From Gammaproteobacteria bacterium (lineage in GTDB: Bacteria; Pseudomonadota; Gammaproteobacteria; Steroidobacterales; PWYM01), in NCBI GenBank assembly GCA_020832005.1, contig JAFIFN010000004.1, positions 5,662 through 69,661 of the forward strand: DNA of 64,000 bases, in the 5' to 3' direction. This document shows positions 14,701-42,848 of the stretch, piece after piece. Both the position numbers and the translations under genes were made by a program. The notes below the pieces were generated by a model. The model did no database searches, was not told the DNA's origin, and worked only from the letters and a program-made list of their open reading frames with translations. The stretch's first letter is position 1; every line of letters starts with the position of its first letter.

Positions 14701-14717
14701 GCTCACTCTCCGTGAAG

Positions 14718-16301: not shown

Positions 16302-16371
16302 GCGTTCGTGCTATCGCGCAATTCGCGCGGGCCGAAGCACAGCACGGATGGCCAGTTCAACCGGCCGGAGT

Positions 16372-18711
16372 TCAGAAGCGCCACCCCAGCCTTACTCCGA
16401 ACTTCCGCGGGTTGGCTGGCGCGACGTTGGTGACGAAGTCATTAAGGGCGAACGTGCCGGTGGTGAAATCCGTAAAGCGGGCAGCAGCGCGGTAGTTCTT
16501 GTCATCGAAGAGGTTGCTGACGAACAACTCGGCACGCCAACGCTCGCCCTCGAGACCACCGCGCAGGTTGACCAGTGTGTAGTCGCTGGTCTTGGCGAGG
16601 TTGAACGCCTCATCCCACGCACTGCCTGTGTAGATCACGTCAGCCCTCAGGAAATAATCCATCTGCGCATTCAGTTGATCGATCCACCCGGCGCCGAAAC
16701 TCGCGGAATACTTCGGGAACCGTGGAGTCTCGTTGCCGGCGACGTCCGAGGTGCCGATCACGCGCTGGCAAAAACCACACTCGAAGTCCTTATATTCCGA
16801 GGCCGCCCAATTGAAGGCTCCACGTAAGCTCAATTGCTGATTGACCTGCAGATTAGCCTCCAGCTCCAGACCCCATAGATCGGTCTTGCCAGCAGTAACG
16901 ATCACCGGTGTGGTACGGAATCCGGCAGGGGTATTCGGATCGGTAATCACGGCAGTTGTGCGCGTCTGCTGATTGGTCCACTCCATGTAGTAGGCGGCAA
17001 TGCCGACGAATCCTCGACCATCGAGGAAGCGCTGTTTCAGGCCGAGTTCGTAGTTCTTGAGCTCCTCCTCATCGACAAACTCTACTGCACCAGTCTGCAC
17101 GCGAACCTCTTCGCGCTGAGCATCGGTGAGTGACAGGAGGCTGATATTGAAATTACCCGGCTTGTTGCCCTTGGCAAATGTGGCGTAGACGTTGGTTTCA
17201 TCGGTGGGCTGCCATTGCAAGATCACCCGGGGGAGAAAATTGGTGAAGGTCTTGCGCACATCAGTGCCTGCAATCTGACCCTGGTCCAGCTGGTCTCGCT
17301 GGTAGCGCGCCTCGACGCTGAAATTGACTGTTTCCGTCAAATCATAACTGCCCGATGCGAATAGCGAGTTGGTCGTTACTTCATCAGTCACGATCGCCTG
17401 GTCGAGAAAGAATCCGTTGACGAACACCGGATTCGGATAGAGATACCCGATCGACGCGCCGCTCGTCGTGTCAAACTCGAGCCCGAAGCGACTGACTCCG
17501 ACCAGCCAGCTGAAGCGCTCGCGATCTCCCGACAACCTCAGCTCGAGACTGGTGTCGGTGATATCTTGAAACGAGCCCTCCAGCCACACCTGCTCGGCGG
17601 TGTAGTCCAGGTCCATCAATCGGGACTGCTCGAGACGGTTATAGCTGGCTGCGCCAGCCAGCACCATTCCGGTATCGCCGATATCCCAGTCACCGGACAG
17701 GCTCAGCCGACGCATCTTGCGGCGCAACCCCATGCCACTCAGGGCGGGCCCTCTGGCCAGCGCCGCGCTATCCCGCGAATTATTCAGATAGATTTCGCGC
17801 GGCTCACCATCAAGCACGGTGTTTATGCCGATATCGCTGACGCGCGGCAACGTGCCGCAGATGTAGGTGCGACCACCCTCGAAGAACGGCCCGCAGTTAT
17901 GGAAACTGCTGTCGAGCGCGAACGTCGGCGGCAGGCCGTCGTCGTCTTCCGAGGCAAACCCACGCAGCGTAAACTCGAGGTTATCACTGGGGGTGGCCAC
18001 CAGCGTCAGCCCCAGTGAGCGGGTTTCTTCCGCACCCAGACGGCCCCCATCCGCCGCACTGCGCCAACGACCGTCACTGGTGTAATAGCGGCCCGTCAGT
18101 CGAGCGAGAAGCCAGTCATCGACGAGCGGCAGATCAATCGAAGCGCTGAGATCGTACTCACCATCTTCGGCAGCCGTAATGTTCAGCTGGCCTTCGAGCG
18201 ATTCAGCCGGCCGACGAGTCACGAAGTTCACCGCGCCCCCGAAAGTGGAGCGACCGAAATAGGCGCTCTGCGGACCTTTGATGACCTCGACTCTCGCTAC
18301 ATCCTCCATGCTGATACTCGACAGCCCTCCGGAGACGTAGACCCCGTCAATGAACACCGAAGCAAGCTGGCGTACCGGTGTGACATCGTTTATGTCCATA
18401 CCTCTGAAGCGCACGACAGACTCCGAACGACCACCGCGCTGGCTGGACATGCTCGAATAGAAAAGGCCAGGCGCGAAATCCGAGATATCCTCGAGCGTGC
18501 GAATGCCAATGCGTTCGATATCATCTTCGGAGAATGCCGTCACGGTGAGCGGAACTTCGAGCAGGCTCTCGTCGCGCTTGCGCGCAGTCACCGTAATCTC
18601 GTCAAGTACGGCGGAGGCACCCTGTGCGCTGGCAGTGCCTGTGGCAAGAGCCGCAGCAACCGCGACCGCGACGGAGCCAAGCATTGAGGTGTTGACGCTC
18701 TTGAAATTCAT
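16372..18711 (-). CDS. TonB-dependent receptor
   Basis: 779 aa from the internal ATG 18711. Signal peptide ending ASAQG, plug-domain motifs (ITVTARKR, VEVIKGPQSAYFG) and a terminal RLGWRF aromatic residue. Confidence 0.9.
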   Translation of the reverse strand: MNFKSVNTSMLGSVAVAVAAALATGTASAQGASAVLDEITVTARKRDESLLEVPLTVTAFSEDDIERIGIRTLEDISDFAPGLFYSSMSSQRGGRSESVVRFRGMDINDVTPVRQLASVFIDGVYVSGGLSSISMEDVARVEVIKGPQSAYFGRSTFGGAVNFVTRRPAESLEGQLNITAAEDGEYDLSASIDLPLVDDWLLARLTGRYYTSDGRWRSAADGGRLGAEETRSLGLTLVATPSDNLEFTLRGFASEDDDGLPPTFALDSSFHNCGPFFEGGRTYICGTLPRVSDIGINTVLDGEPREIYLNNSRDSAALARGPALSGMGLRRKMRRLSLSGDWDIGDTGMVLAGAASYNRLEQSRLMDLDYTAEQVWLEGSFQDITDTSLELRLSGDRERFSWLVGVSRFGLEFDTTSGASIGYLYPNPVFVNGFFLDQAIVTDEVTTNSLFASGSYDLTETVNFSVEARYQRDQLDQGQIAGTDVRKTFTNFLPRVILQWQPTDETNVYATFAKGNKPGNFNISLLSLTDAQREEVRVQTGAVEFVDEEELKNYELGLKQRFLDGRGFVGIAAYYMEWTNQQTRTTAVITDPNTPAGFRTTPVIVTAGKTDLWGLELEANLQVNQQLSLRGAFNWAASEYKDFECGFCQRVIGTSDVAGNETPRFPKYSASFGAGWIDQLNAQMDYFLRADVIYTGSAWDEAFNLAKTSDYTLVNLRGGLEGERWRAELFVSNLFDDKNYRAAARFTDFTTGTFALNDFVTNVAPANPRKFGVRLGWRF

Positions 18712-18747
18712 CAGGTGCCCCTTTTTTTGAGGAATATGCAGGTGCCC
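18712..18747 (-). repeat. 9-nt direct repeat GGGCACCTG x2 (27-nt period) abutting the receptor start codon
   Basis: caggtgccc occurs at 18712-18720 and again at 18739-18747 on the plus strand. The proximal copy ends directly at the ATG. Confidence 0.5.
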
Positions 18748-18862
18748 GAGCCGCGGAGTGCTGCAGGCAAGTATTCGAGTACTGGAAGAAATCACCCGGA
18801 GCCTGCTTGGCCATACCGGGCACAGTTATGCGCTTTTCTACAGAGGCGCCAGCGGGCTGAAA

Positions 18863-18880
18863 ACTACCAAATCAGGTAGT
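18863..18880. promoter_or_regulatory. 18-bp inverted repeat ACTACC-N6-GGTAGT in the luxR/receptor divergent intergenic region
   Basis: Perfect 6-bp arms read directly (actaccaaatcaggtagt). Candidate regulator box. Function not demonstrated. Confidence 0.35.
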
Positions 18881-18967
18881 CAGGCCCTCAGGTGACCGGA
18901 CAGGACCTGCTAGAATCGTGTTTCTTTTCATGCGTGGCCGCACCGTGGCCCCGGAATCTTAGTCGTG

Positions 18968-19723
18968 ATGACAGCAGACGTGCTGAGCAGGGAGTTGCGC
19001 GCGGCCAGCAGCGGCGGCCAGTGCCTTGAACTGCTGTCCGAGAGCCGCCGCGTCCTGGACTTCGGCATTGTCGGCTTTCGTGACCGTGTCGACTCGCCGG
19101 TAGCACCTCGGCTGGCCGATGCCGAGCACTGGGCCAGTCGCTTCGGCTGGCCTGCTGGATTCATGGCTGGATGGCTTGCCGGGAATCACGCCAGCCACTT
19201 TCCCCGGTCCAGCACCCCACGCCAAGCTGACACCCCCTCATACTGGTACCTGCCCGATCTCAACGACGCAAGAACGGTGGGAACGCTAGATGTGAGGAAG
19301 ATGGCTGCGGCACGCTACATGCGCGGGTTCGGAATCAGCGGTGGGGTAACTATTCCGGTCCGCCGACCATTCGGCCAGATCGGCTGCCTCACCTGGATCA
19401 TGTCCGAGGGTCGAACCGTGTCGCTGGACGGGCCACGGCTGTTGACGATGCAACACTTCTGCCGGGATTTCTTCGAGGCACTCGACCACTGCGGCGGTTG
19501 GCGCAGCACCGCCCCGCTCTCGCCACGTGCTCTTGAGTGTCTGCAGCTGGCCGCATGCGGACTCTCGGACAAGCAGATCGCCCACCGCATCGCACGCTCC
19601 GTGGATACGGTGCGCTTCCATATGAAGGCGGCCATTCGGCAGCTCGATGCGGTCAATCGGACCCACGCTGTGGCGCTGGCGGTGCGCGCCGGCCTCATTG
19701 GTGCACTTGGCGGCAGGCCCTGA
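18968..19723 (+). CDS. LuxR-family transcriptional regulator (N-terminal ligand-binding-like domain + GerE HTH)
   Basis: About 251 aa. The C-terminal LSPRALECLQLAACGLSDKQIAHRIARSVDTVRFHMKAAIRQL is a canonical LuxR/GerE HTH. The N-terminal roughly 170 aa has the size of an autoinducer-binding-type domain. No luxI-like gene occurs in the window. Confidence 0.8.
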   Translation: MTADVLSRELRAASSGGQCLELLSESRRVLDFGIVGFRDRVDSPVAPRLADAEHWASRFGWPAGFMAGWLAGNHASHFPRSSTPRQADTPSYWYLPDLNDARTVGTLDVRKMAAARYMRGFGISGGVTIPVRRPFGQIGCLTWIMSEGRTVSLDGPRLLTMQHFCRDFFEALDHCGGWRSTAPLSPRALECLQLAACGLSDKQIAHRIARSVDTVRFHMKAAIRQLDAVNRTHAVALAVRAGLIGALGGRP

Positions 19724-19754
19724 TCCGGGGCCGATTTCGCTGGTTCGAATCACT

Positions 19755-20516
19755 GTGATTGGATGGCTGGCAAGCTGGTGGCGCCGTCGGTCCAGGACCC
19801 CCATCGCCGATACGCTTTGGTCGAAAATCCTGCTGGCACTTCCGTGGCTGTCGCAACTGGAATCCAGGGAGCTGCTGGAGCTTCGGGTACTCGCTGAGCG
19901 ATTTCTCAGGCAAAAGCAGATCCTGGCTGCTGGCGGGCTGCAGATGAACCAGGGAATCCAGGCAACCATCGCCGTCCAGGCCTGTCTGCCCATCCTGTAT
20001 TTGGGCCTGGACTGGTATCGGGGCTGGTATACGGTGGTTGTCTACCCGGATGACTTCGTCGCGCCCTTCGAGTACACCGACGAGGACGGCGTGGTGCACA
20101 GCGGAGAACGCGAACTGTCCGGCGAGGCCTGGCCGGATGGGCCTGTCGTGCTGTCCTGGCACAGCAGCCAGGCGGACAGCGGCGTGCAGCGTGCCGGCAA
20201 CCTGGTCATCCACGAGTTTGCCCACAAGCTCGATCTGCTCAACGGCGATGCCAATGGCCTGCCACCGCTGCATGCAGGCATGTCGCGAAGTAACTGGGTC
20301 AGGGCTTTCAGCGAGGCCTACGACGACTTCTGCCGCCGCGTCGACCACGGCGAATGGACGGCATTTGATGAGTACGCTGCCGAGGATCCGGGCGAGTTCT
20401 TCGCCGTCATCAGCGAGTGGTTCTTCACCGATCCACATGCCGTGCGGGCACATTACCCGGAGGTCTACCAGCAGCTGTGCGCCTTTTATCGACCCCGACG
20501 CGAGGCCCACACGTGA
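19755..20516 (+). CDS. mtfA: MtfA-like zinc metallopeptidase (M90)
   Basis: 253 aa from GTG 19755. Carries the HEFAHKLD zinc motif and YAAEDPGEFFAV. Length and layout are as in E. coli MtfA. Confidence 0.75.
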   Translation: MIGWLASWWRRRSRTPIADTLWSKILLALPWLSQLESRELLELRVLAERFLRQKQILAAGGLQMNQGIQATIAVQACLPILYLGLDWYRGWYTVVVYPDDFVAPFEYTDEDGVVHSGERELSGEAWPDGPVVLSWHSSQADSGVQRAGNLVIHEFAHKLDLLNGDANGLPPLHAGMSRSNWVRAFSEAYDDFCRRVDHGEWTAFDEYAAEDPGEFFAVISEWFFTDPHAVRAHYPEVYQQLCAFYRPRREAHT

Positions 20517-23500
20517 GCCCGGGCGCCTGGGCTTTCTGGATCGATCGCGGCGGTACCTTTACCGACGTCGTGGCGCGACGTCCTGACGGGCAGCTGGTGA
20601 CGCTGAAGCTGCTATCGGAGGATCCGCAGCGTTATGGCGATGCCGCCGTCGCAGGCATTCTGCGCCTGCTCGACGCAGCCCCCGAGCTTCCACGCCGCAT
20701 CGACAGCGTGAAGATGGGCACGACCGTGGCAACCAACGCGCTGCTGGAGCGTCGCGGTGAACCGTGCGCGCTGGTGATCACGGCGGGCTTTGCCGATGCC
20801 CTGGCCATCGGCTACCAGCAGCGCCCGGACCTGTTCGCCCTCGAGATCCGCAAGCCCGCAGTGCTGTACACGCGCATCGTAGAGGCACACGAGCGCATCG
20901 ATGCTGACGGCTCGCTCGTACGGCCGCTCGACACGGCACGGCTGGAAGAAGCGCTGAGGGCCGTGCGCGCCGAGGGACTCTCGGCCGTGGCGATCGCCCT
21001 GTTGCATGCCGACCGCTACCCCGAACACGAACGCACGGCCGCCACCTTGGCACGCGCCGCCGGATTCACGCAGGTGTCGGTCTCCCACGAGGTCAGTCCG
21101 CTGATGAAGCTGGTCCCGCGGGGTGATACGACCACCGTGGACGCCTACCTCTCGCCGGTGCTTCGACGCTACGTCGACCAGGTGCTCGACGGTCTCCAGG
21201 GCCTGGTGCCGGCCGAGCGCCTGCTGTTCATGCAAAGCCATGGCGGGCTGGCTCAGGCAACCCACTTTCAGGGCAAGGACAGCATACTCTCGGGGCCGGC
21301 GGGCGGTGTCGTCGGCATGGCGGAGACCTCGGGCAGCGCGGGTCTTTCCCAGGTGATTGGCTTCGACATGGGCGGCACCTCGACCGATGTGTCGCTGTAT
21401 GCCGGCGAATTCGAGCGCACGCTGGACAGCGTTGTCGCAGGCGTACGTATCCGCGCACCCATGCTGCGCATCCATACCGTCGCCGCCGGTGGCGGCTCGA
21501 TCCTGCACTGGCGCCAGGGCCGCCTGCAGGTGGGGCCGGACTCCGCAGGCGCCCAGCCGGGACCCCTGTGCTACCGAAACGGCGGACCGCTCACGGTCAC
21601 CGACGTCAACGTATTCCTGGGGCGCTTGCAACCCGACTTCTTTCCACAGCTGTTCGGCCCCGAGGGCACGGATCCGCTGGATGTCGCAGCCGTACAAAGT
21701 GCTTTCGCCAAGCGCGCCGCGCAGATCGGCGCCGACACTGATCGGCCGATCACCGCCGAGGCAGTAGCCGAGGGGTATCTGGCGATCGCGGTGGAGAGCA
21801 TGGCCAGTGCGATCAAGCAGATCTCCACGCAGCGCGGCCATGACGTCAGCCGCTACGCGCTGTGCTGTTTCGGCGGCGCCGGCGGTCAGCATGCCTGTCG
21901 CGTGGCCGACGCACTGGGCATGCGTGAGGTGTACATCCACCCGCTGGCAGGCGTGCTCTCGGCCTACGGCATGGGCCTGGCAGATCTTCGCGTCACCCGC
22001 GAACGCACGGCGGAGTTCGCGCTGGCCGATGCACACGCGCCGGCCCTGGCAGCACTGCTGCAGGCGCTTGCCCGGGAATGTACCGAGGCGCTGCAGGCCG
22101 AGGCGCTTGAGACCACCGGCAGCGAACTCGTTCATCGACTGCTGATCAAGCTCGACGGCAGCGACAGCACCCTGACCATCGACTGCACGCTGCCGCTGGA
22201 CGTCGATCGCGTCACGCAGGCATTCCACGCCGAGCACGCGCGCCGCTACGGCTTCCAGGAACACGGCACCGCACTGATCGTCGATGCCGCGCAGGTCGAG
22301 GCAATCGGTCGCGTGCCGCGACATACCGAGGCGCGCTTGACGGCAGCGGACAGTGTCACCCCCCCTCCCGCGCTGGCCGAACGCCAGGTGTTCTGCGATG
22401 GTGTCTGGCGTCGTGTCGAGTTTCACGATCGCGACGCCTTGCGTCCGGGCATGCGGCTGGAAGGACCTGCCGTGATTGTCGAGGACAACGCCACGACCGT
22501 GGTCGAGCCAGGCTGGGTGGCAGGCCTCAATGCCTATGGTCCCCTGTTGCTCGAGCGCCGCGATGCCATGGTGCGGCAGCACCACGACCATGAGCGGCCC
22601 GACCCTGTGCTGCTGGAGATTTTCAACCGGCTGACCATGCATGTGGCCGAGCAGATGGGCGTGGTGCTGGAGAACACCGCCGTCTCGGTCAACATCAAGG
22701 AGCGCCTGGACTTCTCCTGCGCGCTGTTTGACGGCGATGGCGAACTCATCGCCAATGCGCCGCATATGCCGATTCACCTGGGCTCGATGGGCGAGAGCGT
22801 GCAGGCCGTGATGCGGGCTGCCCGCGACGTTGTCGCCAGCGACGTCTACCTGCTCAACGACCCCTACCACGGCGGAACGCATCTGCCCGACATCACGGTC
22901 GTCACACCGGTCTTTGCAAGCGCCGACGACCCCATGCCGTCGTTCTGGGTCGCCTCGCGCGCCCACCATGCCGACATCGGCGGCATCACGCCCGGCTCGA
23001 TGCCACCCGAGAGTCGCAACATCAACGAGGAAGGCGTGCTCTTCGACGTGTTCCGGCTGGTCGAGGACGGCGAACTGCGCACCGAAGCACTGCTCGAACG
23101 GCTGACCGAGGGTCCGTGGCCGGCGCGTAATCCGCGCCAGAACATCGCCGACCTGAAAGCCCAGATCGCGGCCAATGCGCGCGGCATCCGTGAACTTGAA
23201 CGCGTGATCGGCCACTACGGCCTGGAGACGGTCCGCGCCTACATGAAGCACATCCGCGCCAATGCCGAGGAAGCCGTACGCGAAGTCGTGGATCGGCTGC
23301 ACGACGGTGAGTTCGTCATCGACATGGATGGCGGCGAGCGCATCTGTGTCAGCGTGCGGATTGACCGGGCACGCCGCGAAGCCTGCATCGATTTCACCGG
23401 CACCTCCGCGCAGAGTTCACGCAACTTCAACGCACCTGCCGCGGTCGCCAAGGCGGCCGTGCTGTATGCCTTCCGTGCACTGGTGCGCACGGAGATTCCA

Positions 23501-24133
23501 CTCAATGCCGGCTGTCTTGCGCCACTGACGATCATCAACCCGCCCGGCTGCCTGCTCAACCCCGCGCCGCCGGCGGCCGTCGTGGCCGGCAATGTCGAGA
23601 CCTCGCAGTGCATCACCGACGCACTGCTCGGCGCACTCGGCGTACTGGCCGGTTCCCAGGGCACGATGAACAACCTGACCTTCGGCAACGCCACGCATCA
23701 GTACTACGAGACCCTGTGTGGTGGGGCTGGTGCGGGTGACGGCTTTCCCGGGGCTGATGCCGTGCACACGCACATGACCAACTCACGCCTGACCGATCCC
23801 GAGGTCCTCGAGCATCGCTATCCGGTGCGCATCGAGCACTTCGGCATCCGCCAGGACTCAGGCGGTCAGGGGCGCTACCGTGGCGGCCACGGCGTGATCC
23901 GCCGCCTGCGCTTTCTCGAGCCGATGTCTGCGTCCATTCTGTCGAACAACCGCTGCTGCAGGCCATTCGGACTCGCGGGCGGCGAACCCGGCAGTCCCGG
24001 CGTCAACCGCCTGCTGCGCGCAGATGGCCGCGAGGCGCTGCTGCCGGCCTGCGCAAGCATCGACATGGCTGCCGGAGACCAGCTTGAGATCACCACCCCC
24101 GGGGGCGGTGGCTACGGCTCAGCCGGCAAGTGA
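20513..24133 (+). CDS. 5-oxoprolinase / hydantoinase A-B fusion (HyuA+HyuB)
   Basis: About 1206 aa from GTG 20513, which overlaps the mtfA TGA (GTGA). The N-terminus [12 protein letters not shown] is hydantoinase_A-like. The C-terminal half carries [11 protein letters not shown] and GGGGYG, typical of hydantoinase_B/oxoprolinase. Confidence 0.9.
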
Positions 24134-25660
24134 CAGGCTTCGGGTCAGGGGCATCGACGAGATGCGCGTGCTGCCCAGGCGATGGGCGATATTGAAGATC
24201 AGGAACTCCGAGGGCCGGCTCAGCGCAATGCCCAGGACGATATTCAGCTGGGGGGCACCGTGGCGATCCTGAACCACCGTATCCGCATCGCACTTGACGA
24301 ACCAGGACTGTTCGGGCGTATGGCCGGCAAAGGCGCCCTGTTCATGCAGTTCCTGCAGAAACATCGAAGCCTGGCGACGCACGCGCGCCCACAGCACGGG
24401 ATCGTTCTGTTCGAACACCAGCCAGCGGGTTGCCCGACTGACACTGTCGAGCACGTGCAGGGCCAGCCGGCGCTGGGTCAGCGACTGCCACTCATGGGCA
24501 CTGGCCGAACTGCCCGCAAGCGTTGCGTCGCCGCGCAAAACGCAGGCGCCGCCGGCTGCGCGACTGAAGACGTTGATGCCCAGCCTTCGGAGCTTCTGGG
24601 CCATTTCGGGCGGGACGTCCTCGGCGGGCGCGAGACTGCCCCGCAGCAGTCCTGTCTGCGAATCCAGCGCACGCCATAGACCGGCCGTCGCATCCTTGCG
24701 CGCAAGCATGCCGGCGATTGCCCCACAGGCAGGCAGCAATCGCTCGGCCGTGTCACCGCGACGCTGCAGCCTGGGGTAATAAGTCATCGCGTTACCGCTG
24801 GCCAGACCCAGTTCCGCGGCTTCTTTCATCGCTATACGCGCACTGCTCCATGCCCTCGGCGGATCGAAAACCAGCATCACGCCGCGCTGGCGACAGAAGC
24901 GCTCGGCTGCGACCAGCGTGGTCAGGCCCAGGTCACGGTTCGGCGCCGGCGGCGGCAGACACAGCAGCGAGAGTTCATCACAGGCGTTCAATGCGAACAG
25001 GCCCGTGCAATCCGTGGCAGAGCCTACGAGATCGTAGTCGCAGAGATCATCGCCATCATGGCCATCGGCTCGCAGGTCGATGTAACTCACGGCCGCGCCC
25101 GCCGAGCTCGACACCGTGCGATCCGGCCGCTGCAGCGGACAGGGTCCTGCAAGGCGGACCAGCGACGAGCCCATCAGCGCATCACCGAGATAGTCCTCGC
25201 TGCCGGGTTGCACCGTCAGGCGTCGGTAAATCTCCTGGTCCACCACGCGCCGGGGCTCAGTGTCGCTGAGCCGCTGGACGACCAGGTTGAAGCGCAGCGG
25301 CTCGGGTTCCACGCGGTCGTGATCGACCGAGATGCGCAGGTGCTCATGCCGGCCGGGGTCACGTGCGCGCAGGATGATGCGACCCTCGCCCGCGGGCATG
25401 TGCAGCGTCGCGCAGGCGCCGCGGTTGATCACCCGCACGACGCGGGCGTGCTGACCGCCGTGCTCGAAAAACTGCGTGACCGCATGACTGAGCCATGACG
25501 AGGCCGTGGGCGTACCGAAGATGCGCTGGTACTCGGCAAGACTGCTGATGGCCACGGCCTCGTTGACGGGACCGCGCCGGGCGCGACCGACAAACCCGAC
25601 GACCGTCGGACGCGTCATGGCGATGGGCTGACCCGCTGCCGGATATTCGGCAACGGTCAT
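24119..25660 (-). CDS. phage-tail/contractile-injection sheath family protein (orphan, diverged)
   Basis: 514 aa from ATG 25660, with GGAG 7 nt upstream. The N-terminal block VVGFVGRARRGPVNEAVAISSLAEYQRIFG...FFEHGGQHARVVRV matches sheath family blocks. So does the C-terminal block GINVFSR..VLRGDATL..EWQSLTQRRL...WLVFEQNDPVLW...FLQELHEQGAFAG...SWFVKCD. Confidence 0.75.
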   Translation of the reverse strand: MTVAEYPAAGQPIAMTRPTVVGFVGRARRGPVNEAVAISSLAEYQRIFGTPTASSWLSHAVTQFFEHGGQHARVVRVINRGACATLHMPAGEGRIILRARDPGRHEHLRISVDHDRVEPEPLRFNLVVQRLSDTEPRRVVDQEIYRRLTVQPGSEDYLGDALMGSSLVRLAGPCPLQRPDRTVSSSAGAAVSYIDLRADGHDGDDLCDYDLVGSATDCTGLFALNACDELSLLCLPPPAPNRDLGLTTLVAAERFCRQRGVMLVFDPPRAWSSARIAMKEAAELGLASGNAMTYYPRLQRRGDTAERLLPACGAIAGMLARKDATAGLWRALDSQTGLLRGSLAPAEDVPPEMAQKLRRLGINVFSRAAGGACVLRGDATLAGSSASAHEWQSLTQRRLALHVLDSVSRATRWLVFEQNDPVLWARVRRQASMFLQELHEQGAFAGHTPEQSWFVKCDADTVVQDRHGAPQLNIVLGIALSRPSEFLIFNIAHRLGSTRISSMPLTRSLSLAG

Positions 25661-25753
25661 GCCTGCACTCCACGTCTCGAGCGATCCGGCGTCCATGAGA
25701 TCCTGCAGCGGAAATGACGCCATCATACCCAGCAGTTGTGCCTGATGCAGCAT

Positions 25754-25776
25754 CAGACACAAGATATTGTGATCTG
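25754..25776. promoter_or_regulatory. imperfect AT-centred palindrome upstream of the sheath gene
   Basis: The minus-strand reading is CAGA(T)CACAA-TATC-TTGTGTCTG, a 9-bp-arm palindrome with one bulged base. It is locally AT-rich against a GC-rich background and lies about 95-115 nt upstream of ATG 25660. Confidence 0.3.
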
Positions 25777-25823
25777 CGTCGCCGCTCAGACGCGTCAGCG
25801 GATCCGCGAACAACCCTGGCGGG

Positions 25824-26600
25824 TCAGTTCAGACCCTGGCCCATCAGCACCAGGCGCAGCCACACCAGCAACAGCACGCCGCAGACCACGCCACTGAGTT
25901 GCAGGCGCAGACGCACATACCAGCGCGCCAGCACGTGCTTGCCTGGCACCGCCCACTCATACAGCCACCACAGCGCGAAACCCAGCAGCAGGATCAGCGT
26001 GGCCAGCGCAGGGTCCTGCCACATCAGCAATGCCACCCAGCCCACCAGTGCAGGCACGACCGACAGTCCGGTCATCAGGCGCGCCTTGAAGGGCTTCACC
26101 GGTCCGGCCAGCGCCACACCCCAGTGCACGGCACCGACGAAGGACAGGATTACCGCGGCATAGCTGAGCAGAAACCGCAGCGTGTCCAGGCCGAAAAAAA
26201 CCTGCGGTCCCAGCAGCAGAACCAGCGCACCCCCAAGCACGAAGGGGATCAGGCCCGCGTAGCCCAGCGCGCGGGCAAGTCCGACGAGATGATCTGCGCT
26301 GCCCGATGACACCGGCGTGGTCAAACCGAGCTTCGCATACAGCTCAAGCGGGCCCCCGACGAAGTGTCCATCAAGAAAACACTGGGGCAGTCGCCGCGAG
26401 CCCGTCTGCCCGGCGAGTGCACGGAAACTCTCGCGGTTGTCTTCATCGCCCATCGGCAGGCGCAATTCATGGTGCTCGATGCCGGCCTGTTGCAGTCGCT
26501 GCAGCAGTTCCCGGCTATCCGTCAACGCCGAGCCGACCACGACGACCCGTGAGTCCCGGCTTGCGGTCTTGATGCGCGAAAATATGTTTTCTTCTGCCAT
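25824..26600 (-). CDS. glutaredoxin-like domain (no CxxC) fused to DUF3429 membrane domain
   Basis: 258 aa. Residues of about 15-95 follow the Grx fold pattern (VVVVGS....., RRLPQCFLDGHFVGGPLEL), but the CPYC position reads ALTD. The C-terminal roughly 150 aa is polytopic (4-5 TM helices), consistent with DUF3429. Confidence 0.7.
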   Translation of the reverse strand: MAEENIFSRIKTASRDSRVVVVGSALTDSRELLQRLQQAGIEHHELRLPMGDEDNRESFRALAGQTGSRRLPQCFLDGHFVGGPLELYAKLGLTTPVSSGSADHLVGLARALGYAGLIPFVLGGALVLLLGPQVFFGLDTLRFLLSYAAVILSFVGAVHWGVALAGPVKPFKARLMTGLSVVPALVGWVALLMWQDPALATLILLLGFALWWLYEWAVPGKHVLARWYVRLRLQLSGVVCGVLLLVWLRLVLMGQGLN

Positions 26601-26603: not shown

Positions 26604-26750
26604 TCAGCCTTTTCCGCTCGACGCATCGCCGCTCGGTGCGCTGTCAGGCGTCTGGGAGCGCCGCGCCTGTTCCTCGCGTGCGGCTTGCTCCTCGGCCTGC
26701 TTGCGCTCGATCTCCTCGAGCATGACGCGCATCCATTCACTCATTTCCAT
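26604..26750 (-). CDS. 48-codon micro-ORF (charged helical peptide), not in ORF track
   Basis: Translated by hand as MEMSEWMRVMLEEIERKQAEEQAAREEQARRSQTPDSAPSGDASSGKG. Third positions are mostly G/C. It overlaps the upstream gene stop (26737) and ends 3 nt before the next ATG (26600), which looks like operon-style packing. Alternative in-frame ATGs lie at 26744 and 26732. Confidence 0.4.
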   Translation of the reverse strand: MEMSEWMRVMLEEIERKQAEEQAAREEQARRSQTPDSAPSGDASSGKG

Positions 26751-28821
26751 CTGCACCCTCCTGAGGTGCTACGAACCATGCATGCCATTGCTCACCGGCC
26801 ACCGTCAGCACGCGCGCCCGGTCCTCGTCCAGCAGAAAGCCTGCATCGATCAGCGCATCGGCCGCCTCGCCGACCTGGCGCAGGAAATCGCCCCGGTCAG
26901 CATACAGCTCGCTGATGGCCGGACGGAGATCCTGTTCAGCGCGCAGCGCAGGCGTTGCCGCAAGCGGCAGCGTGGTACCGGAGAAATCGGCGATCTCGCC
27001 AGGATTCGCCAGACCATGGCGAAGACTCCAGGGCAGGTGAGTCGCCAGCGGCACGCGAAGTTCGACATTGCGGACGCCGCAGCACTCGTTGCCCAGCGCA
27101 TCGAGCTGCGGCACACGACTGGCGAACGCCAGCCCAACATGCGGCGGCTCGTGGTCGATGATGCCGTGGTCTTGAAAGCGCGGCCCATAGTCCATGCGCC
27201 GCGCAACATGCGTCGCACGCGGGGCTACAAGCCCCGGGATCGCCGGCAGTCTGAGCTCGTCGACAGGCACGAGTCCGGCCGTATCGATGCGCGGCACCTG
27301 CGTGGCCGGCGGCGCCTCATCATCGCGCACCCAGAGCACAAGCCGATGGAGCAACGCACGCAGGTTAAGTCGCCAGTCGACAGCGTTGCCGCGCAGCATC
27401 ATGGGCTGATCATCGGCCAGAGACTCGACCGGGCTCAAGGACTCGAGTGGCTGGACCCAATGCTGTCCGCCGGCCATGTGGTAGAGACGTTCATCTATCG
27501 CCGGATCGACATCCTGCCCGCCCATCGGATCATGATGCAGCAGCGACGCGACGCGGCCGTAGTACTCGTAGCCCGCATTGACCTGCATCAGTCGCGCCCG
27601 CCCCGGGCCCTGCCCGTAGGCATCGAGCAGGCCTTCGCGACGCCCGGCCACCGGGTCCTCGACGGGCAGACTCGTGAACGGATACAGGTCGACCGGATGA
27701 TGGAAGGCCGAGTAGCGGTGACCGTCCAGAGAAGGCTGGGCGAAGCGGTGATTGAAGCTGCCGCGCCCGGCACCGGCCACGACCGCGAACATGCCATCGA
27801 ATACCGTGCGACCCTGGCCGTCGAGATTGAAGCCATCGTAGAGAAATTGTCGCAGCAGCCTGCCGCTCTGCGACACGCCCACGGCAATCGCGTGCTCGAC
27901 CTGCACCGCAGCCGACGGGTCGTGCCGCAGGTGGCTGACGAAATCCCGCAAGGCTGCAAGCCCGACCCCGGCCACAGGCGGATCCACTGCCTCCCACACC
28001 AGCTCGTAGATCCAGCCGGTCTCGAAGCCGCCATCCATCTCGATGGTATCGGGCTCAGCCGGGTCGGCCTCGCCGACAAACCGCCAGCGGGCGCGATCGA
28101 CCAGTTCCGCAGGCGCATCACGGCCGCTGCGACGCGTCAGCAGATGGCGCGCTGAATCCGGCTCATACACCCGATGGGCGCGCATGCCGCGATGGCCCAG
28201 CGGCAGACGCGCGCTGGGCCGGTCGACCACCCAGTCCATGCGCAGCCGGCCGCGAATCGGCGCTGCATCGGCCTGTGCCACGGGCGCGGTCAACGCCATG
28301 CGGCCCGGCTCGCGCGGCACGTCGAACTGCCAGCCCAGCCAGCCGAGCACCAGGCCCTGGCGCTGCAGAAAACCATCGCCGAATTCGGCTTCGAGCGTCT
28401 CGTGCGGTCCGCGTCCGGCGAGGTTGAAGCTGCCGATGACACCACGGCTGCCGCGATTGCTCACCTCCAGCAGCAGCACGGGTGACGGTGGCAGCACCTC
28501 TGGAATCTGCAGCACGAAGTCGGCATCGAAGTGCACCCGGCCGTCGTCGTCCACGGGAGCATAAGCCAGATCGACGATCGCGGCATTCGCAGGATCGGCG
28601 GGATCGAGCGCGAATCGCGCCACGCCCTGGACCTCGACCACGTTGCCCCAGGGCAGCTCGAGCCGGCGTTCCTGCGCCACATCGAGCGCAACAATCCCAG
28701 CCTGCGCCACACCGCCGGACAGCAGCAGGGACGCAAGCACGACGCCGACGAAGCGGCGCGCGGGCACCAAGGCAGCAGTCAGGTGAACGAGGGACATCCC
28801 CGGCATGATACCGGCTTGCAC
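26737..28821 (-). CDS. secreted alpha/beta-hydrolase-domain protein (Abhydrolase_10-like)
   Basis: About 690 aa. Signal peptide MSLVHLTAALVPARRFVGVVLASLLLSGGVAQA and a GxSxG-type elbow AVGVSQSGR. The overall layout recalls the large bacterial alpha/beta hydrolase domain family. The start is GTG 28821 or ATG 28806/28797. Confidence 0.65.
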   Translation of the reverse strand: MQAGIMPGMSLVHLTAALVPARRFVGVVLASLLLSGGVAQAGIVALDVAQERRLELPWGNVVEVQGVARFALDPADPANAAIVDLAYAPVDDDGRVHFDADFVLQIPEVLPPSPVLLLEVSNRGSRGVIGSFNLAGRGPHETLEAEFGDGFLQRQGLVLGWLGWQFDVPREPGRMALTAPVAQADAAPIRGRLRMDWVVDRPSARLPLGHRGMRAHRVYEPDSARHLLTRRSGRDAPAELVDRARWRFVGEADPAEPDTIEMDGGFETGWIYELVWEAVDPPVAGVGLAALRDFVSHLRHDPSAAVQVEHAIAVGVSQSGRLLRQFLYDGFNLDGQGRTVFDGMFAVVAGAGRGSFNHRFAQPSLDGHRYSAFHHPVDLYPFTSLPVEDPVAGRREGLLDAYGQGPGRARLMQVNAGYEYYGRVASLLHHDPMGGQDVDPAIDERLYHMAGGQHWVQPLESLSPVESLADDQPMMLRGNAVDWRLNLRALLHRLVLWVRDDEAPPATQVPRIDTAGLVPVDELRLPAIPGLVAPRATHVARRMDYGPRFQDHGIIDHEPPHVGLAFASRVPQLDALGNECCGVRNVELRVPLATHLPWSLRHGLANPGEIADFSGTTLPLAATPALRAEQDLRPAISELYADRGDFLRQVGEAADALIDAGFLLDEDRARVLTVAGEQWHAWFVAPQEGADGNE

Positions 28822-28829: not shown

Positions 28830-29963
28830 TTAGTCTTCGAAATCGCGACGCGCGGCACTGAGCTCGGGATCGTCGTGGGCCACGATGTTCTCGACCCGCC
28901 GCGCGGCAGCAAGGTATTGCTGCGCATCCGTGCTGTTACGCAGGCTGGGCAGTGCAATGCCACGACCCTCACGCATCAGCACCGCTGCGCGTTGAAAGTC
29001 CACGGTGCCCAGCGCCTGACCCGCGGCGGCGACCGCCTGCTCGATGGTCTCGACAAGCAGTTTTTCCGGATCGCGGTCGTCTTCTTCGAGAAACTCGTGC
29101 GCATCCACATACAGCTGGCTGCCATGCCAGGCCGCCAGCACGGGCTCATTGATCAGCCGCACCGGCGTGCCGCGCGCGATGCGCGGAAACAGCGCCTCGA
29201 TGTCTTCGGGGAACATGCGCACGCAGCCGGCACTCACACGCATGCCCACGCCCGGCGGCTTGTTGGTGCCGTGGATCAGGTAGCTGGGCAGTCCCAGCCG
29301 GAAGACGTGCCGACCGAGCGGGTTGTCGGGTCCTGGCGGCACGATGCTCGGCAAGGGATCACCCATCTCGGCATGCTCGCGGCGCACCGACGCGGGCGGA
29401 TACCAGGTCGGGTCGGTGGCCTTGTCGATGACCGTGCTCTGCCCCGTGGGCGTGGCCCGGCCGATGCGACCAATACCGATGGGGTGGGTATAGACCACCT
29501 GGCTGCCATCCTCGGCCGGCGGCTCGAAGTAGTACAGGCGCATCTGCGCGTTGTTGACGATGATGCCTTCACGCTCGACAGCCGGCAGGATGAAGCGCGT
29601 GGGTAGCACGATCTCCGCACCTTCACCGGGCAGCCAGGGATCGATGCCGGGGTTGGCGGCAACGAGTTCCTCGAAACCAAGGTTATAGGCCCGGGCGATA
29701 TCGACGAAGGTGTCTTCACTTCGGGTGCGCAGCATCTGCAGCTCGCCCACGATGCGCTGTTCGGGATCATCGAGTACGAATCGCGAGGTCACCAGCGGCG
29801 GCTGTTCCACATACACGATCGGCTTGGCCGTCTCCGTGAGCGGCTCGGCTGGTCGATCACCGGAGCGATCGCCAAGCCCGGCGCAGGCACCGAGCATCAG
29901 CGCTGCAGTGAGCAGGCTTGCGCGCCGGATCGGCAGGATATGCGACGAGGGGACAGTCAACAT
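28830..29963 (-). CDS. L,D-transpeptidase (YkuD) lipoprotein with LysM domain
   Basis: 377 aa with lipobox LMLGAC, a LysM-like DIARAYNLGFEELVAANPGI and the YkuD catalytic motif HGTNKPPGVGMRVSAGCVRM. Confidence 0.88.
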   Translation of the reverse strand: MLTVPSSHILPIRRASLLTAALMLGACAGLGDRSGDRPAEPLTETAKPIVYVEQPPLVTSRFVLDDPEQRIVGELQMLRTRSEDTFVDIARAYNLGFEELVAANPGIDPWLPGEGAEIVLPTRFILPAVEREGIIVNNAQMRLYYFEPPAEDGSQVVYTHPIGIGRIGRATPTGQSTVIDKATDPTWYPPASVRREHAEMGDPLPSIVPPGPDNPLGRHVFRLGLPSYLIHGTNKPPGVGMRVSAGCVRMFPEDIEALFPRIARGTPVRLINEPVLAAWHGSQLYVDAHEFLEEDDRDPEKLLVETIEQAVAAAGQALGTVDFQRAAVLMREGRGIALPSLRNSTDAQQYLAAARRVENIVAHDDPELSAARRDFED

Positions 29964-29990: not shown

Positions 29991-30650
29991 TTACAATGCT
30001 ACGACGGCATCTGCACCGACTGCCCAGAGTCGCTCACCGGCTGCGGCACGCACATTGTAGCCGCCCGTGAGACTGCCGAAAGCCGGCAGCACCAGGCAGC
30101 CCGCACGCTGCCAGAAAACGGGCATGCGCAAGCGATCACCGCGCCTGCCCGCAAGTCTTGTGGCGGGATGCACATGCCCGGCCAGCACGAAGCAGTCAGA
30201 GCCGGCCGCCGGCTCGTGACGAAATTCAAGCCCTTGTTCGCGCAGACCTTCGTCGCACCACTCGACCAGCGCGGCGCTGCGGCTGCGCAGCGAAGGACGA
30301 TCGTGGTTGCCGGCGATCGCGAGCAGTCGCACATCGTCACGCGCTGCACGCCAGCGCGCGAGTGCGTCGAGCAGGCTGGCATCGAGTCCTGCCGGTCCGT
30401 GGAACAGGTCGCCAAGCACCAGCACGCGCGTGCATTCATACGCAGTCACAAGCTTGCCGAGTCGTGCCAGGTCATGCTCACTGGGCCCACGTGGCACGGC
30501 CACGCCGTGATCGGCGAACACGCCCTCCTTGCCCAGGTGCACGTCGGCGACGATGAGCATGCGCGCAGCCGGCCAGATCACCGCGCGCTCGGCATGCAGC
30601 AGCAGTCGCTCACCCCCCAGCTCGACCTCGCAGGCAGCGCGCTCAGGCAT
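29991..30650 (-). CDS. pdeM: ligase-associated DNA damage response endonuclease PdeM (metallophosphoesterase)
   Basis: 219 aa from ATG 30650, overlapping the helicase stop by 8 nt. Carries LIVADVHLGK, GDLFH and AGNHD. Confidence 0.8.
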   Translation of the reverse strand: MPERAACEVELGGERLLLHAERAVIWPAARMLIVADVHLGKEGVFADHGVAVPRGPSEHDLARLGKLVTAYECTRVLVLGDLFHGPAGLDASLLDALARWRAARDDVRLLAIAGNHDRPSLRSRSAALVEWCDEGLREQGLEFRHEPAAGSDCFVLAGHVHPATRLAGRRGDRLRMPVFWQRAGCLVLPAFGSLTGGYNVRAAAGERLWAVGADAVVAL

Positions 30651-33126
30651 GTGCCGCCTTCCGGGCCGTACCTGCATCACGCGCGATCGCATCGGCCTCG
30701 CGCTCCAGACGTTCGGCCATCCTGAGCACGCGCGTACGCCAGTCCTCCGAGGACATGACCTGGCTTTGCAGCCGCTCGGCCCATAGCGGAAAGGCCAGTG
30801 GCGTCAGTCGGGCCGGCTGCATGTGACAGAGCTTCGCGTCGCGCATCCGCGCAAGGGTGGTGGCCAGACGCTGATACTCGAGCTGGCTTTCGAGCACCTC
30901 GCGGCGCGCCTGTTCGAGCAGCAGGTTGTCGCCGTCGTAACGCACGAGTACATCGAACATCAGTCCGCTGGAGGCCTGAATCTGGCGCGTGGTCTTCTGC
31001 GCGCCCGGGTAGCCCTGGAACACCAGACCACTGATGCGCGCGATGTCGCGGAACTGCCGGCGCGCAATCTCGGAGGCATTGATGCATGCGAGCAGATCGG
31101 CCAGCAGCGTATCGGCGTCGAGCAGCCCCTCGAGGCGGTCGGGCAGTCTGATCGGCGTAGGGCTGAGCAGCTCAAACCCGTAGTCATTGACCGACAACGT
31201 GAAGGTTGCCGGTGCATTTTGCATCAGCCGCCAGGCCAAAAGCGTGGCGAGTCCTTCGTGCACCAATCGACCGGCGAACGGATAGATGAACAGGTGGTGA
31301 CCCTCACGCGTCTCGATGGATTCAAGCAGCAGCTCACCGGTTGCAGGCAGGCGTGACCATCGCACCTGCAGGTCCAGCATCGGGGCAAGCACGGCCAGCT
31401 CCGGTTCATGTGCACGGCCCGCTGCGACATCGCCGAGCAGCGCCAGCACGCTGTCGCCCAGCGCCGTGGACAGCGGCATGCGCCCACCCTGCCAGCGCGG
31501 CACGATGCGCGTGCGCCCGCGCGCGGCACGCACATAGGCGACCATGTCACGCACGCGTGCAAGCTCGACGATGCGCCCCGTGAACAGAAAGCGATCACCC
31601 GGCGACAGGCGCGAGATGAAGCTTTCCTCGATCGTGCCGAGCCGACCGCCGCGCAGCCATCGCACCTGCATCATGGGATCAGAGGCGATGGTGCCGATGC
31701 CCATGCGGTGGAAGCGCGCGATGCGCGTATCCTCGACGCGCGCCACACCATCGTCGCCCATGCGCACCTTGTGGAACTGCGGATAGGCTTTCAGCGCGGC
31801 GCCGCCGTGCATGACGAAATCCATGATCCACTGCCACTGCGTGCGCTCGAGAGAAGCGAAGGCATGCGTGCGCCGCACTTCATCGAACAGCACATCCGGC
31901 ACGAAACCATCACCGGTGGCCAGCGTGACGACATGCTGGATCAGTACATCGAGTGACAGGGTCAGCGGGCGCCGCGCCTCGATATTGCCGGCGGCCGCGG
32001 CGCGCCTGGCCGCGGCGATCTCGACCAGTTCGAAGGCATGCGTGGGCACACACAGCACCCGACTGACGCCGCCAGGACGATGGCCACTGCGCCCGGCGCG
32101 CTGCAGCAGCCGCGCAACGCCCTTGGGACTGCCGACCTGCAACACCTGCTCGACCGGATGGAAGTCCACCCCCAGATCCAGCGACGAGGTACATACGACG
32201 CAGCGCAGCTCACCGGCCTGCAGCCGTGCCTCGATGGACTCGCGCAGCGCGCGATCCAGCGAGCCGTGGTGCAAGGCGACGCAGTCGGCCCAGTCCGGCC
32301 GCGCGGCGACGATTGCCGCGTGCCACAGCTCGGCCTGCGAGCGCGTGTTGGTGAACATCAGCGTGGCCCGCGCGCCCTCGAGTGCCTCGATCACGGGCGC
32401 GAGTTGCGCATCGCCGAGATGGCCGGCCCAGGGAAAGCGTGCAGGATCGTCTGGCAGCAGCGCATCGATGACGACCGGTCGCGGCACCTGTCCCTCGATG
32501 AGCTCACCATCGACACCCGGACCCAGCAGCACATCGCGCGCCTGCTCGAGGTTGCCGAGCGTGGCTGACAGGCCCCAGCAACGAAGCCCCGCTGCCTGGG
32601 CACGCAGCCGCGCAAGACACAGTTCGAGTTGCACGCCGCGCTTGCCCCCGATCAGTTCATGCCACTCATCGACGATGACCGTGTGCACGCTGGCGAAGCG
32701 TTCGGCGGCGCCGCGCGTGGCGAGCATCACCGACAGGCTCTCGGGTGTCGTCACCAGCGCCATCGGCGGCGAACGCCACTGGCGCGCACGCACCGTCTGC
32801 GCGGTGTCACCGCTGCGAAGCTCGACGCGCCAGTCCAGGCCCAGCCCGCGCAGTGCCGCCTGCAGGTTGCGTTGTGTGTCGGCGGCCAGCGCGCGCAGCG
32901 GCGTAATCCACAGCACACGCAAGCCCGGTGGCAGACCATCGGGATGCGCGGCGGTGAGTGCCTGGACCGGACCCAGCCATGCGGCCAGGGTCTTGCCGCT
33001 GCCGGTGGGCGCGTGGATCAGGCCCGAGCGCCCGGCCAGCGAGGCCCGCCATGCCGTGCGCTGGAAAGGCAGGACTTCACGGCCTTCACTGGCGAACCAG
33101 CGCTCAATGGCGGCGGCGGTATTCAC
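30643..33126 (-). CDS. ligase-associated DNA damage response DEXH-box helicase (Lhr-like)
   Basis: 827 aa with PTGSGKT and VIVDEWHEL (DEWH), a helicase C-terminal domain and an Lhr-type C-terminal extension. Confidence 0.9.
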   Translation of the reverse strand: MNTAAAIERWFASEGREVLPFQRTAWRASLAGRSGLIHAPTGSGKTLAAWLGPVQALTAAHPDGLPPGLRVLWITPLRALAADTQRNLQAALRGLGLDWRVELRSGDTAQTVRARQWRSPPMALVTTPESLSVMLATRGAAERFASVHTVIVDEWHELIGGKRGVQLELCLARLRAQAAGLRCWGLSATLGNLEQARDVLLGPGVDGELIEGQVPRPVVIDALLPDDPARFPWAGHLGDAQLAPVIEALEGARATLMFTNTRSQAELWHAAIVAARPDWADCVALHHGSLDRALRESIEARLQAGELRCVVCTSSLDLGVDFHPVEQVLQVGSPKGVARLLQRAGRSGHRPGGVSRVLCVPTHAFELVEIAAARRAAAAGNIEARRPLTLSLDVLIQHVVTLATGDGFVPDVLFDEVRRTHAFASLERTQWQWIMDFVMHGGAALKAYPQFHKVRMGDDGVARVEDTRIARFHRMGIGTIASDPMMQVRWLRGGRLGTIEESFISRLSPGDRFLFTGRIVELARVRDMVAYVRAARGRTRIVPRWQGGRMPLSTALGDSVLALLGDVAAGRAHEPELAVLAPMLDLQVRWSRLPATGELLLESIETREGHHLFIYPFAGRLVHEGLATLLAWRLMQNAPATFTLSVNDYGFELLSPTPIRLPDRLEGLLDADTLLADLLACINASEIARRQFRDIARISGLVFQGYPGAQKTTRQIQASSGLMFDVLVRYDGDNLLLEQARREVLESQLEYQRLATTLARMRDAKLCHMQPARLTPLAFPLWAERLQSQVMSSEDWRTRVLRMAERLEREADAIARDAGTARKAAHA

Positions 33127-34300: not shown

Positions 34301-34367
34301 GGCTGCACCGTCCCTCGGGCGGTCGAACCTGACAGGGTGATTCGGAAGTTCGCCGTCCTCATCAGCC

Positions 34368-34396
34368 AGAATACTGCAGCACTGCAGTATTCTCAA
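34368..34396 (-). promoter_or_regulatory. sigma70-like promoter TTGAGA-17-TATTCT with embedded perfect palindrome AATACTGCAG-nn-CTGCAGTATT
   Basis: Read on the minus strand, -35 is at 34396-34391 and -10 at 34373-34368. The 22-bp inverted repeat (34370-34391) fills the spacer and overlaps both hexamers. It lies about 70 nt upstream of the antitoxin ATG. Confidence 0.5.
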
Positions 34397-42847: not shown

Positions 42848-42848
42848 C

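Follow-up and report, generated by a model that had tools for sequence, protein, structure and literature searches.

What is a contractile-tail sheath gene doing in a bacterial chromosome that shows no tail around it? This question is raised by a 64,000-nucleotide stretch from a Gammaproteobacteria bacterium (assembly GCA_020832005.1, contig JAFIFN010000004.1, positions 5,662 to 69,661), which was analysed at its full length and is referred to below as the window, all coordinates being positions within it. To our knowledge, contractile sheaths have so far been recognised only as motors within multi-protein injection machines, namely phage tails, tailocins, extracellular contractile injection systems (eCIS) and type VI secretion systems (T6SS). 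We identified a sheath-like gene on the reverse strand of the window and conclude that it very probably encodes an exapted orphan sheath, which is neither part of a local contractile injection system (CIS) nor a relic.

24119 to 25696, reverse strand: sheath-like gene, 525 amino acids (aa) plus stop, with its start chosen from the orthologue alignment and an AGGA upstream

The open frame of this gene extends upstream to a TTG at 25813 (24119 to 25813, reverse strand, 564 aa), and both sequence blocks quoted in the original prediction are present in its translation. We consider the ATG at 25696 to be the better start because the close orthologues P0005, P0006 and P0008 begin at the same position and an AGGA lies 4 nt upstream of it. 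An alternative ATG at 25753 corresponds to the NCBI call, a protein of 544 aa (MCC5867143.1) labelled 'phage tail sheath ... domain-containing protein', and homology to sheaths is therefore already known from database labels. The product length of 514 aa given earlier needs correction, since the ATG at 25660 actually yields 513 aa. The G/C content at third codon positions (GC3) is 0.76, compared with 0.76-0.83 in the neighbouring genes, and the overall G+C content is also neighbour-like, in line with the earlier observation of housekeeping-type codon usage.

The window gene encodes a true full-length, three-domain homologue of CIS-type sheaths. The Pfam model Phage_sheath_1 (PF04984) scored 31.8 bits against a cut-off of 31.4, Phage_sheath_1C (PF17482) remained just under its cut-off (25.5 against 26.9 bits), Gp18_domIII_N reached 18.5 bits, and the PHROG family phrog_23, 'tail sheath', covered residues 3-486 with an E value of 6e-37. 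NCBIfam assigned no family to the protein, and there was no match to TssC/VipB models in Pfam or NCBIfam. A family profile built from 70 members and run against the sequences of the Protein Data Bank (PDB) recovered the CIS sheaths of Streptomyces coelicolor (8bky, E 1e-64) and Halogeometricum borinquense (9ezm, E 2e-63), followed at lower rank by PVC, Afp, AlgoCIS, pyocin and T4 gp18 sheaths. The similarity to sheaths is thus well beyond what chance would give, and structure prediction agrees with it. An AlphaFold2 model was obtained with a predicted local distance difference test (pLDDT) score of 88.9 and a predicted template modelling (pTM) score of 0.88, and when it was compared with the PDB using Foldseek, the best 50 matches were all sheath proteins, with template modelling (TM) scores of up to 0.79 on the target. 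Model and matches have the architecture typical of sheaths, in which the core is composed of N- and C-terminal parts and an outer domain is inserted. The nearest phage sheath is at most 25.5% identical.

The original prediction had stated that no other tail or injection-system gene occurs in the 64 kb, and this holds. Every sizeable open reading frame (ORF) of the window was run against Pfam or PHROGs, and none of these ORFs encodes a tube, baseplate, spike, tape measure, recycling ATPase or integrase; apart from the sheath-like gene, the ORFs matched are of housekeeping type. There are no tRNA genes in the window, no Rfam family was found on the whole window, and no flanking or att-like repeats were found around the sheath-like gene. 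The locus therefore lacks the clustering of a sheath with tube, baseplate, spike, tape measure and ATPase that characterizes CIS. It also differs from a T6SS, for which the protein gave no TssC/VipB match and the window scans revealed no Hcp, TssE-K or ClpV neighbours, and from a prophage or eCIS remnant, for which no tRNA, repeats, phage genes, odd composition or relaxed selection were seen.

The same absence was found at the loci of relatives. Pfam-annotated contexts of nine homologues (38-71% identity), 10 kb on each side, contained no tail gene. In addition, partner proteins (tube, baseplate, Pvc16 and AAA) were taken from the two nearest clusters of true CIS type, and tblastn searches with them over the window and 89 loci (1.55 Mb) gave no match. 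The first of these clusters (L088) contains, in order, sheath, gp19-type tube, T4_baseplate, Pvc16_N and AAA ATPase genes, and the second (L091), on a Streptomyces plasmid, contains sheath, tail protein, DUF4255 and ATPase genes in order. The tubes of these two unrelated clusters are 78% identical, so a tube of the same lineage would show in such a search.

Database searches returned close orthologues of 59-91% identity and a wider family of 510-550 aa proteins with about 40% identity in Steroidobacteraceae, Woeseiaceae and unclassified gammaproteobacterial metagenome-assembled genomes (MAGs). When one genome per species was scanned, at least 569 species-level genomes were found to encode a relative of the sheath-like protein. 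The best 80 of these all belong to Woeseiaceae, Steroidobacteraceae or unclassified gammaproteobacterial MAGs, and they are single orphan loci, each from a different genome. The Woeseiaceae branch alone comprises 1467 protein clusters at E<=1e-30. A cultured carrier was sought by means of a Woeseiaceae orthologue, and the best 120 matches all had MAG or metagenome names. One orphan sheath-like gene, with a YkuD gene directly upstream as in Gammaproteobacteria, was found in a MAG labelled 'Rhodospirillales bacterium' (L014, JAHEKG010000171.1); this is probably a mis-binned or mislabelled contig, and transfer could be another explanation.

The genes around the orphan sheath recur from genome to genome. 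Neighbours were counted by tblastn with the window proteins across 87 loci, together with the Pfam-annotated contexts; a clustering of ORFs from the 87 flanks was set aside because of several antisense artefacts in high-GC DNA. The counts were as follows.

Upstream, same strand: YkuD, 68 of 87 loci
Downstream, convergent: oxoprolinase-type gene, 45 of 87 loci
Downstream: Abhydrolase_6 gene, 57 of 87 loci
Downstream: PlsB, 36 of 87 loci

Synteny and frameshifted tail-gene remnants were among the checks proposed with the original prediction, and both gave a clear outcome: in the orthologous loci of more than 80 species the gene is intact within a fixed housekeeping neighbourhood, and no such remnants were found. 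The ratio of nonsynonymous to synonymous substitution rates (dN/dS) of the sheath-like gene is 0.08-0.10 against two orthologues of 89% amino-acid identity, which is equal to or below that of the flanking genes, and the gene is under strong purifying selection. A dN/dS of 1.9 for Peptidase_M90 against L001 was disregarded as an alignment artefact. Median identity to the window copy is 40.5% for the sheath-like protein and 46-55% for the neighbour genes in the same genomes, from which the protein appears to evolve slightly faster than the enzymes but in step with the genome. Because its identity tracks that of the neighbours and the locus is fixed, vertical inheritance from an ancestor of these lineages is indicated. 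Judged by these comparisons, the sheath-like gene appears to be a single chromosomal gene that has been inherited vertically across Woeseiaceae, Steroidobacteraceae and related Gammaproteobacteria.

If the gene has been retained alone for so long, which parts of the protein has selection held on to? A profile search of 1.84 billion representatives yielded 4630 sheath relatives at E<=1e-30, and a neighbour-joining tree of the best 150 of the 4630 contained about 80 orphan representatives and a canonical CIS clade of 68. Gene context confirmed orphan status for P0139 and P0160 and canonical status for P0182. Conservation was then compared column by column between the 80 orphan and 68 canonical representatives, with reference to the following parts of the window protein.

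25607 to 25696, reverse strand: N-terminal arm and linker, residues 1-30, collinear with residues 7-30 of the S. coelicolor sheath Cis2, pLDDT 41-47
25112 to 25429, reverse strand: surface domain 3, residues about 90-195, five beta-strands and a helix, pLDDT 83-95 in the domain model
24179 to 24793, reverse strand: C-terminal core, residues about 302-506, the Phage_sheath_1 and Phage_sheath_1C region (Pfam), which in canonical sheaths forms the wall and faces the tube
24122 to 24178, reverse strand: C-terminal extension, residues 507-525, orphan-specific, with a predicted strand (509-515) and helix (519-524) in the AlphaFold2 model

The machine-facing parts have lost conservation. In the N-terminal arm it is 0.32-0.40 in orphans compared with 0.62-0.64 in canonical sheaths, and in the core (residues 300-510) it is 0.29-0.48 compared with 0.53-0.82. 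The motifs RTDxxRGVWKAPAG, WGaRT, PVRR, VFEPN, AYFVKCD and GFAPLkPAEF, which are kept in the canonical core, are lost or degenerate in orphans. Five motifs (PGVYxEE, RGVWKAPAG, VFEPN, AYFVKCD and GFAPLkPAEF) are at least 80% conserved in the 68 canonical sequences and are lost or below 50% in the 80 orphans and the window protein. The PGVYxEE of the canonical arm reads AGMTVAE in the window protein, and only G..V.E is left of it in orphans. The original prediction had aligned this motif with AEYPAAG, which the alignment does not support, and had also reported a substitution of YYPW by YYPR; yFPr is the consensus of the nearest canonical clade, and hence no substitution has taken place there. 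The arm itself is present in every member, and among close orthologues its rate is no higher than that of the rest of the protein. Both terminal arms are present and collinear with Cis2, with degenerate motifs and, in the N-terminal arm, the low pLDDT given above.

The opposite trend was observed on the outer surface. For domain 3, conservation in orphans exceeds that of the canonical sheaths by 0.12 to 0.22. Residues 91-165, 211-225 and 256-270 have a conservation of 0.47-0.63 in orphans compared with 0.35-0.48 in canonical sheaths, and carry the orphan-specific motifs E118, R121, VDxD, RFNLVVQR, DQEI, DGxDG and DYDxIGS, the first five of which are in domain 3. The invariant polar residues E118, R121, D125, Q141, R142, Q154 and E155 are also grouped in this domain. 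When domain 3 alone was used in Foldseek, the sole significant match was the equivalent domain of the H. borinquense CIS sheath 9ezm (E 7e-4); it is therefore an inherited sheath domain 3 and not a new acquisition, and no function can be inferred from its fold. In addition, the orphans have a C-terminal extension of 15-35 aa with the consensus HRxGGSRVRPVSxNR, beyond the point (about residue 509) at which the canonical chain stops. Read from the alignments, the constraint pattern is inverted relative to working sheaths, the arm and core having relaxed and domain 3 having gained invariant polar motifs.

We also examined the genes adjacent to the sheath-like gene, which is the last in a co-directional array consisting of YkuD, Abhydrolase_10, a small ORF, DUF3429 and the sheath-like gene itself, and is met by a convergent gene at its 3' end.

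28830 to 29963, reverse strand: L,D-transpeptidase (YkuD; PF03734, E 3e-21), a conserved upstream neighbour
26737 to 28821, reverse strand: Abhydrolase_10-domain protein (PF20091, E 1e-33), inserted between YkuD and the small ORF
26604 to 26750, reverse strand: small ORF of 48 aa, MEMSEWMRVMLEEIERKQAEE..., conserved, on the same strand and upstream of the sheath-like gene
25824 to 26600, reverse strand: DUF3429 membrane protein (PF11911, E 6e-28) with a weakly glutaredoxin-like N-terminus
20417 to 24133, forward strand: fused hydantoinase A/B (5-oxoprolinase-family) gene (Pfam Hydant_A_N, Hydantoinase_A and Hydantoinase_B), convergent

A hidden Markov model (HMM) search recovered the small ORF (MEMSEWMRVMLEEIERK...), with its protein sequence conserved, in 46 of 91 loci, always upstream and co-directional. 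It stands directly before the sheath-like gene in 25 loci, before a rhomboid gene in 10 and before a DUF3429 gene in 3, and each of these in turn precedes the sheath-like gene. No Pfam family was found for it, and no similarity to TssB was detected. In the window it overlaps the end of the preceding Abhydrolase_10 gene by 14 nt. The DUF3429 gene begins 3 nt past the stop of the small ORF, and a gap of 127 nt separates its end from the start of the sheath-like gene. The small ORF may encode a partner protein.

The family of the upstream membrane protein varies by lineage: DUF3429, with an N-terminus that has no CxxC, is found in the window clade, and a rhomboid protease is found in about 30 loci (for example L002, 9252-9932, and L007, 9235-9921). 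Of the earlier description of this neighbour as 'Grx-like/DUF3429', the DUF3429 part is well founded, while the glutaredoxin-like part, at E 0.011, is below threshold. The Abhydrolase_10 insertion is lineage-specific and shared only by the closest relatives L008 and L009. The YkuD protein has a lipoprotein-type signal (LGAC) and a LysM-like segment, both read by eye. A promoter scan around the sheath-like gene found no promoter-like site, and a terminator scan found two terminator-like sites, both inside coding sequence and at chance level; what can be inferred about transcription is therefore limited to gene spacing.

The 15-nt overlap of the 3' ends with the convergent 5-oxoprolinase-family gene (20417-24133 against 24119) was described correctly in the original prediction. 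In L008 and L009 (89% amino-acid identity) the oxoprolinase-type gene is absent from this position and peptidase M90 follows directly, so the overlap is not conserved, and a regulatory role for it was rejected on these grounds. It is recent and lineage-specific. In 14 loci, including L017 (3287-3796, reverse strand), the place of the oxoprolinase-type gene directly downstream is taken by a convergent DUF4442 (thioesterase-like) gene.

The remainder of the window carries a wide range of genes. The full set comprises thioredoxin, DEAD helicase, HAD hydrolase, inositol monophosphatase, PlsB, GH15 enzyme, OtsA, glucokinase, carbonic anhydrase, FAD oxidoreductase, TonB receptor, LuxR regulator, peptidase M90, the oxoprolinase-type gene, the sheath-like gene, DUF3429, the Abhydrolase_10 protein, the YkuD L,D-transpeptidase, Metallophos phosphoesterase, Lhr helicase, a RES/Xre toxin-antitoxin pair, S41 peptidase, ATP-dependent DNA ligase, peptidase M48, MscS, NqrA-F with ApbE, MAPEG, peptidase S49, lipoyl synthase, OmpA, a second HAD hydrolase, a GGDEF protein, AcrAB-type efflux and BatD/VWA proteins. 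Three features of it were recorded as observations in their own right.

33204 to 34426, reverse strand: RES-domain toxin with an Xre-like/MbcA-ParS antitoxin (type II toxin-antitoxin), between the Lhr helicase and the peptidase/ligase genes and outside the neighbourhood conserved in other genomes
29991 to 33126 and 36390 to 39118, reverse strand: DNA-repair-type cluster with an Lhr-like helicase, a Metallophos phosphoesterase, an ATP-dependent DNA ligase and a 365-aa protein without Pfam or PHROG match; L001 has an equal gene set
14000 to 20000 and 40000 to 48000: stretches of lower G+C (0.60-0.63 compared with 0.65-0.70), containing the FAD oxidoreductase, TonB receptor and LuxR genes and the Nqr operon, with no mobile-element genes seen

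How might such a protein work? The shift of constraint from the N-terminal arm and core to domain 3, the fixed locus and the dN/dS values support exaptation, one of the two explanations offered in the original prediction, and in this family the sheath fold probably serves another cellular purpose. According to our model, the sheath-like protein would no longer wrap a tube or inject. Most likely it would instead self-assemble in the cytoplasm into a static helical or ring scaffold without a tube, because isolated sheath proteins polymerise alone and both terminal arms persist here. The outward-facing, conserved domain 3 would then be the working surface that binds a partner. Co-expression with the upstream same-strand genes, which encode a helical protein of 48-57 aa, a membrane protein of the rhomboid or DUF3429 type and the L,D-transpeptidase, is probable, and the operon-like linkage to these envelope-type genes suggests a role connected with the cell envelope. 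We give about even chances to the model as a whole, that is, an exapted CIS-type sheath that forms a self-assembling, tube-less cytoplasmic scaffold and presents domain 3 to a partner. A more specific version is put forward tentatively: a stand-alone, tube-less and non-firing sheath polymer, ring or scaffold with a conserved outer domain 3, expressed together with envelope proteins and a small helical partner, would be a core component of Woeseiaceae and Steroidobacteraceae.

Several observations weigh against this model. Both the PGVYxEE handshake and the core motifs by which canonical sheaths hold together are degenerate, which could equally mean that polymerisation has been lost, and the protein could be capped in cis by its C-terminal extension. 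Synteny without any functional tie may account for the linkage to YkuD, the small ORF and the rhomboid gene, and the small ORF is detected in no more than about half of the loci. Overall, the orphans diverge more among themselves than the canonical sequences do (mean pairwise identity 35% compared with 48%), and therefore only the relative conservation pattern, not absolute values, is comparable between the two. All of the sequences derive from MAGs or metagenomes, and the negative results for partner genes cover the window and flanks of at most 10 kb in relatives, so that a tube and baseplate cluster lacking a sheath gene would have escaped them if encoded farther away.

The degenerate contact motifs lead directly to a rival explanation, in which the protein is exapted but does not polymerise, acting instead as a soluble monomer or small oligomer whose domain 3 binds a ligand or partner and whose old wall is simply a chassis. 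The arm and core motifs for subunit and tube contacts are indeed the least conserved parts, the invariant polar residues listed above are concentrated in domain 3, and the additional strand at the C-terminus could occupy the acceptor site in cis. However, domain 3 has no fold similarity to enzymes or known ligand-binding domains and resembles only the equivalent sheath domain; the N-terminal arm is kept in all members and, among close orthologues, changes at no higher rate than the remaining protein; and all isolated sheath proteins that have been studied polymerise (PMC6357053, PMC8618960). We regard this explanation as rather unlikely. It is improbable that the protein is a displaced working part, assembling around a tube and baseplate whose genes lie far away in the same genome, as in the second explanation of the original prediction. 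An intact, constrained gene with both arms would fit such a role, and the partner search covered the window and 10 kb flanks. Nevertheless, sheath and tube genes are adjacent in both of the nearest true CIS loci, the best 80 genome matches are single orphan loci of different genomes, and the separation would need to be stable across hundreds of species. Moreover, conservation among tubes of the lineage is high (78% identity), whereas in the orphans the core that faces the tube in canonical sheaths no longer carries the signature motifs of the lineage.

The remaining two explanations start from the phage or CIS origin of the gene. A domesticated structural protein might serve in phage defence, as a decoy or sensor of incoming myovirus tail proteins, and the binding of tail tubes by the sheath fold, together with a RES/Xre toxin-antitoxin pair 8 kb away, would be in keeping with this. 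We consider it very improbable: neither the sheath-like protein nor any of seven neighbours or unannotated ORFs matched PADLOC-DB, no effector gene is linked, the toxin-antitoxin pair is outside the conserved neighbourhood, and the fixed locus, vertical inheritance and near-housekeeping rate are unlike those of patchy mobile defence genes. That the gene is instead a functionless, decaying remnant of a prophage tail or eCIS might be supposed from its being the sole tail-related gene of the region. This reading is effectively refuted, with next to no probability left to it, since the gene is intact at the same locus in more than 80 species, has a dN/dS of 0.08-0.10 and host-like GC3, is accompanied by no integrase, tRNA or att-like repeats, and has no tail-gene remnants in 1.55 Mb of flanks.

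The exapted-scaffold model, if it is true, would represent a new kind of bacterial cytoskeletal or scaffold element made from a phage-tail part, and if tubes form naturally, they would constitute a ready-made, evolution-tuned protein nanotube. In any case a sheath gene has been kept alone through an order-level radiation, with selection moved from the machine-facing surfaces to the outer domain, and it provides a natural case of one phage-derived machine part being re-used for another purpose. In marine sediments and soils, Woeseiaceae and Steroidobacteraceae count among the most abundant bacteria. Full-text literature searches found no paper describing a lone sheath family. CIS surveys drop loci without core partner genes (PMC12210884), and a lone sheath family would therefore never be catalogued by them. 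A large, vertically inherited, partner-less family with inverted constraints and a dedicated upstream small protein thus appears to be undescribed.

Among known systems, the closest in sequence is Cis2, the cytoplasmic CIS sheath of S. coelicolor (8bky, 8bl4, 9gtp and 9gts), which gave the best match of any solved structure (the E value of 1e-64 reported above) and is collinear from arm to core. Cis2 has 534 aa and the same three-domain plan, and Foldseek matched it with E values of 5e-21 to 5e-17 at 22-24% identity. In Cis2, domains 1 and 2 form the sheath wall, domain 3 is flexible on the outer surface, and the system acts in the cytoplasm (PMC10066040). However, Cis2 is encoded in a full cluster with tube, baseplate and ATPase genes, in a layout as in the related L091, and the window gene is without these. 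The motifs of the Cis2 lineage (PGVYxEE, RGVWKAPAG, VFEPN, AYFVKCD and GFAPLkPAEF) are lost in the window protein, the domain that is flexible in Cis2 is the most conserved part in orphans, and the orphans add their 15-35 aa C-terminal extension. The top structural match over the whole protein is the CIS sheath of the archaeon H. borinquense (9ezm; E 8e-30, TM 0.66-0.70, 25% identity). That structure is the contracted sheath of a CIS particle, whereas the window protein has no partners and a different conservation pattern.

For the assembly proposed here, the nearest precedent is provided by isolated phage sheath proteins. T4 gp18 (as polysheath), FV3 gp053 and RaK2 gp041 polymerise into stable tubes without a tube protein or baseplate (PMC6357053, PMC8618960, PMC9230969). 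They belong to the same superfamily as the window protein, and T4 gp18 is among its Foldseek matches. Polysheaths are by-products or laboratory products of contraction proteins, whereas a tube-less state in the window family would be natural and selected. The TssB/TssC (VipA/VipB) sheath of the T6SS is a more distant, likewise cytoplasmic member of the superfamily, and its combination of a large and a small subunit loosely recalls the small ORF, although by analogy only. The window has no TssC/VipB match, Hcp, TssE/F/G/K or ClpV, and the small ORF encodes a single 48-aa helix in which no similarity to TssB was detected.

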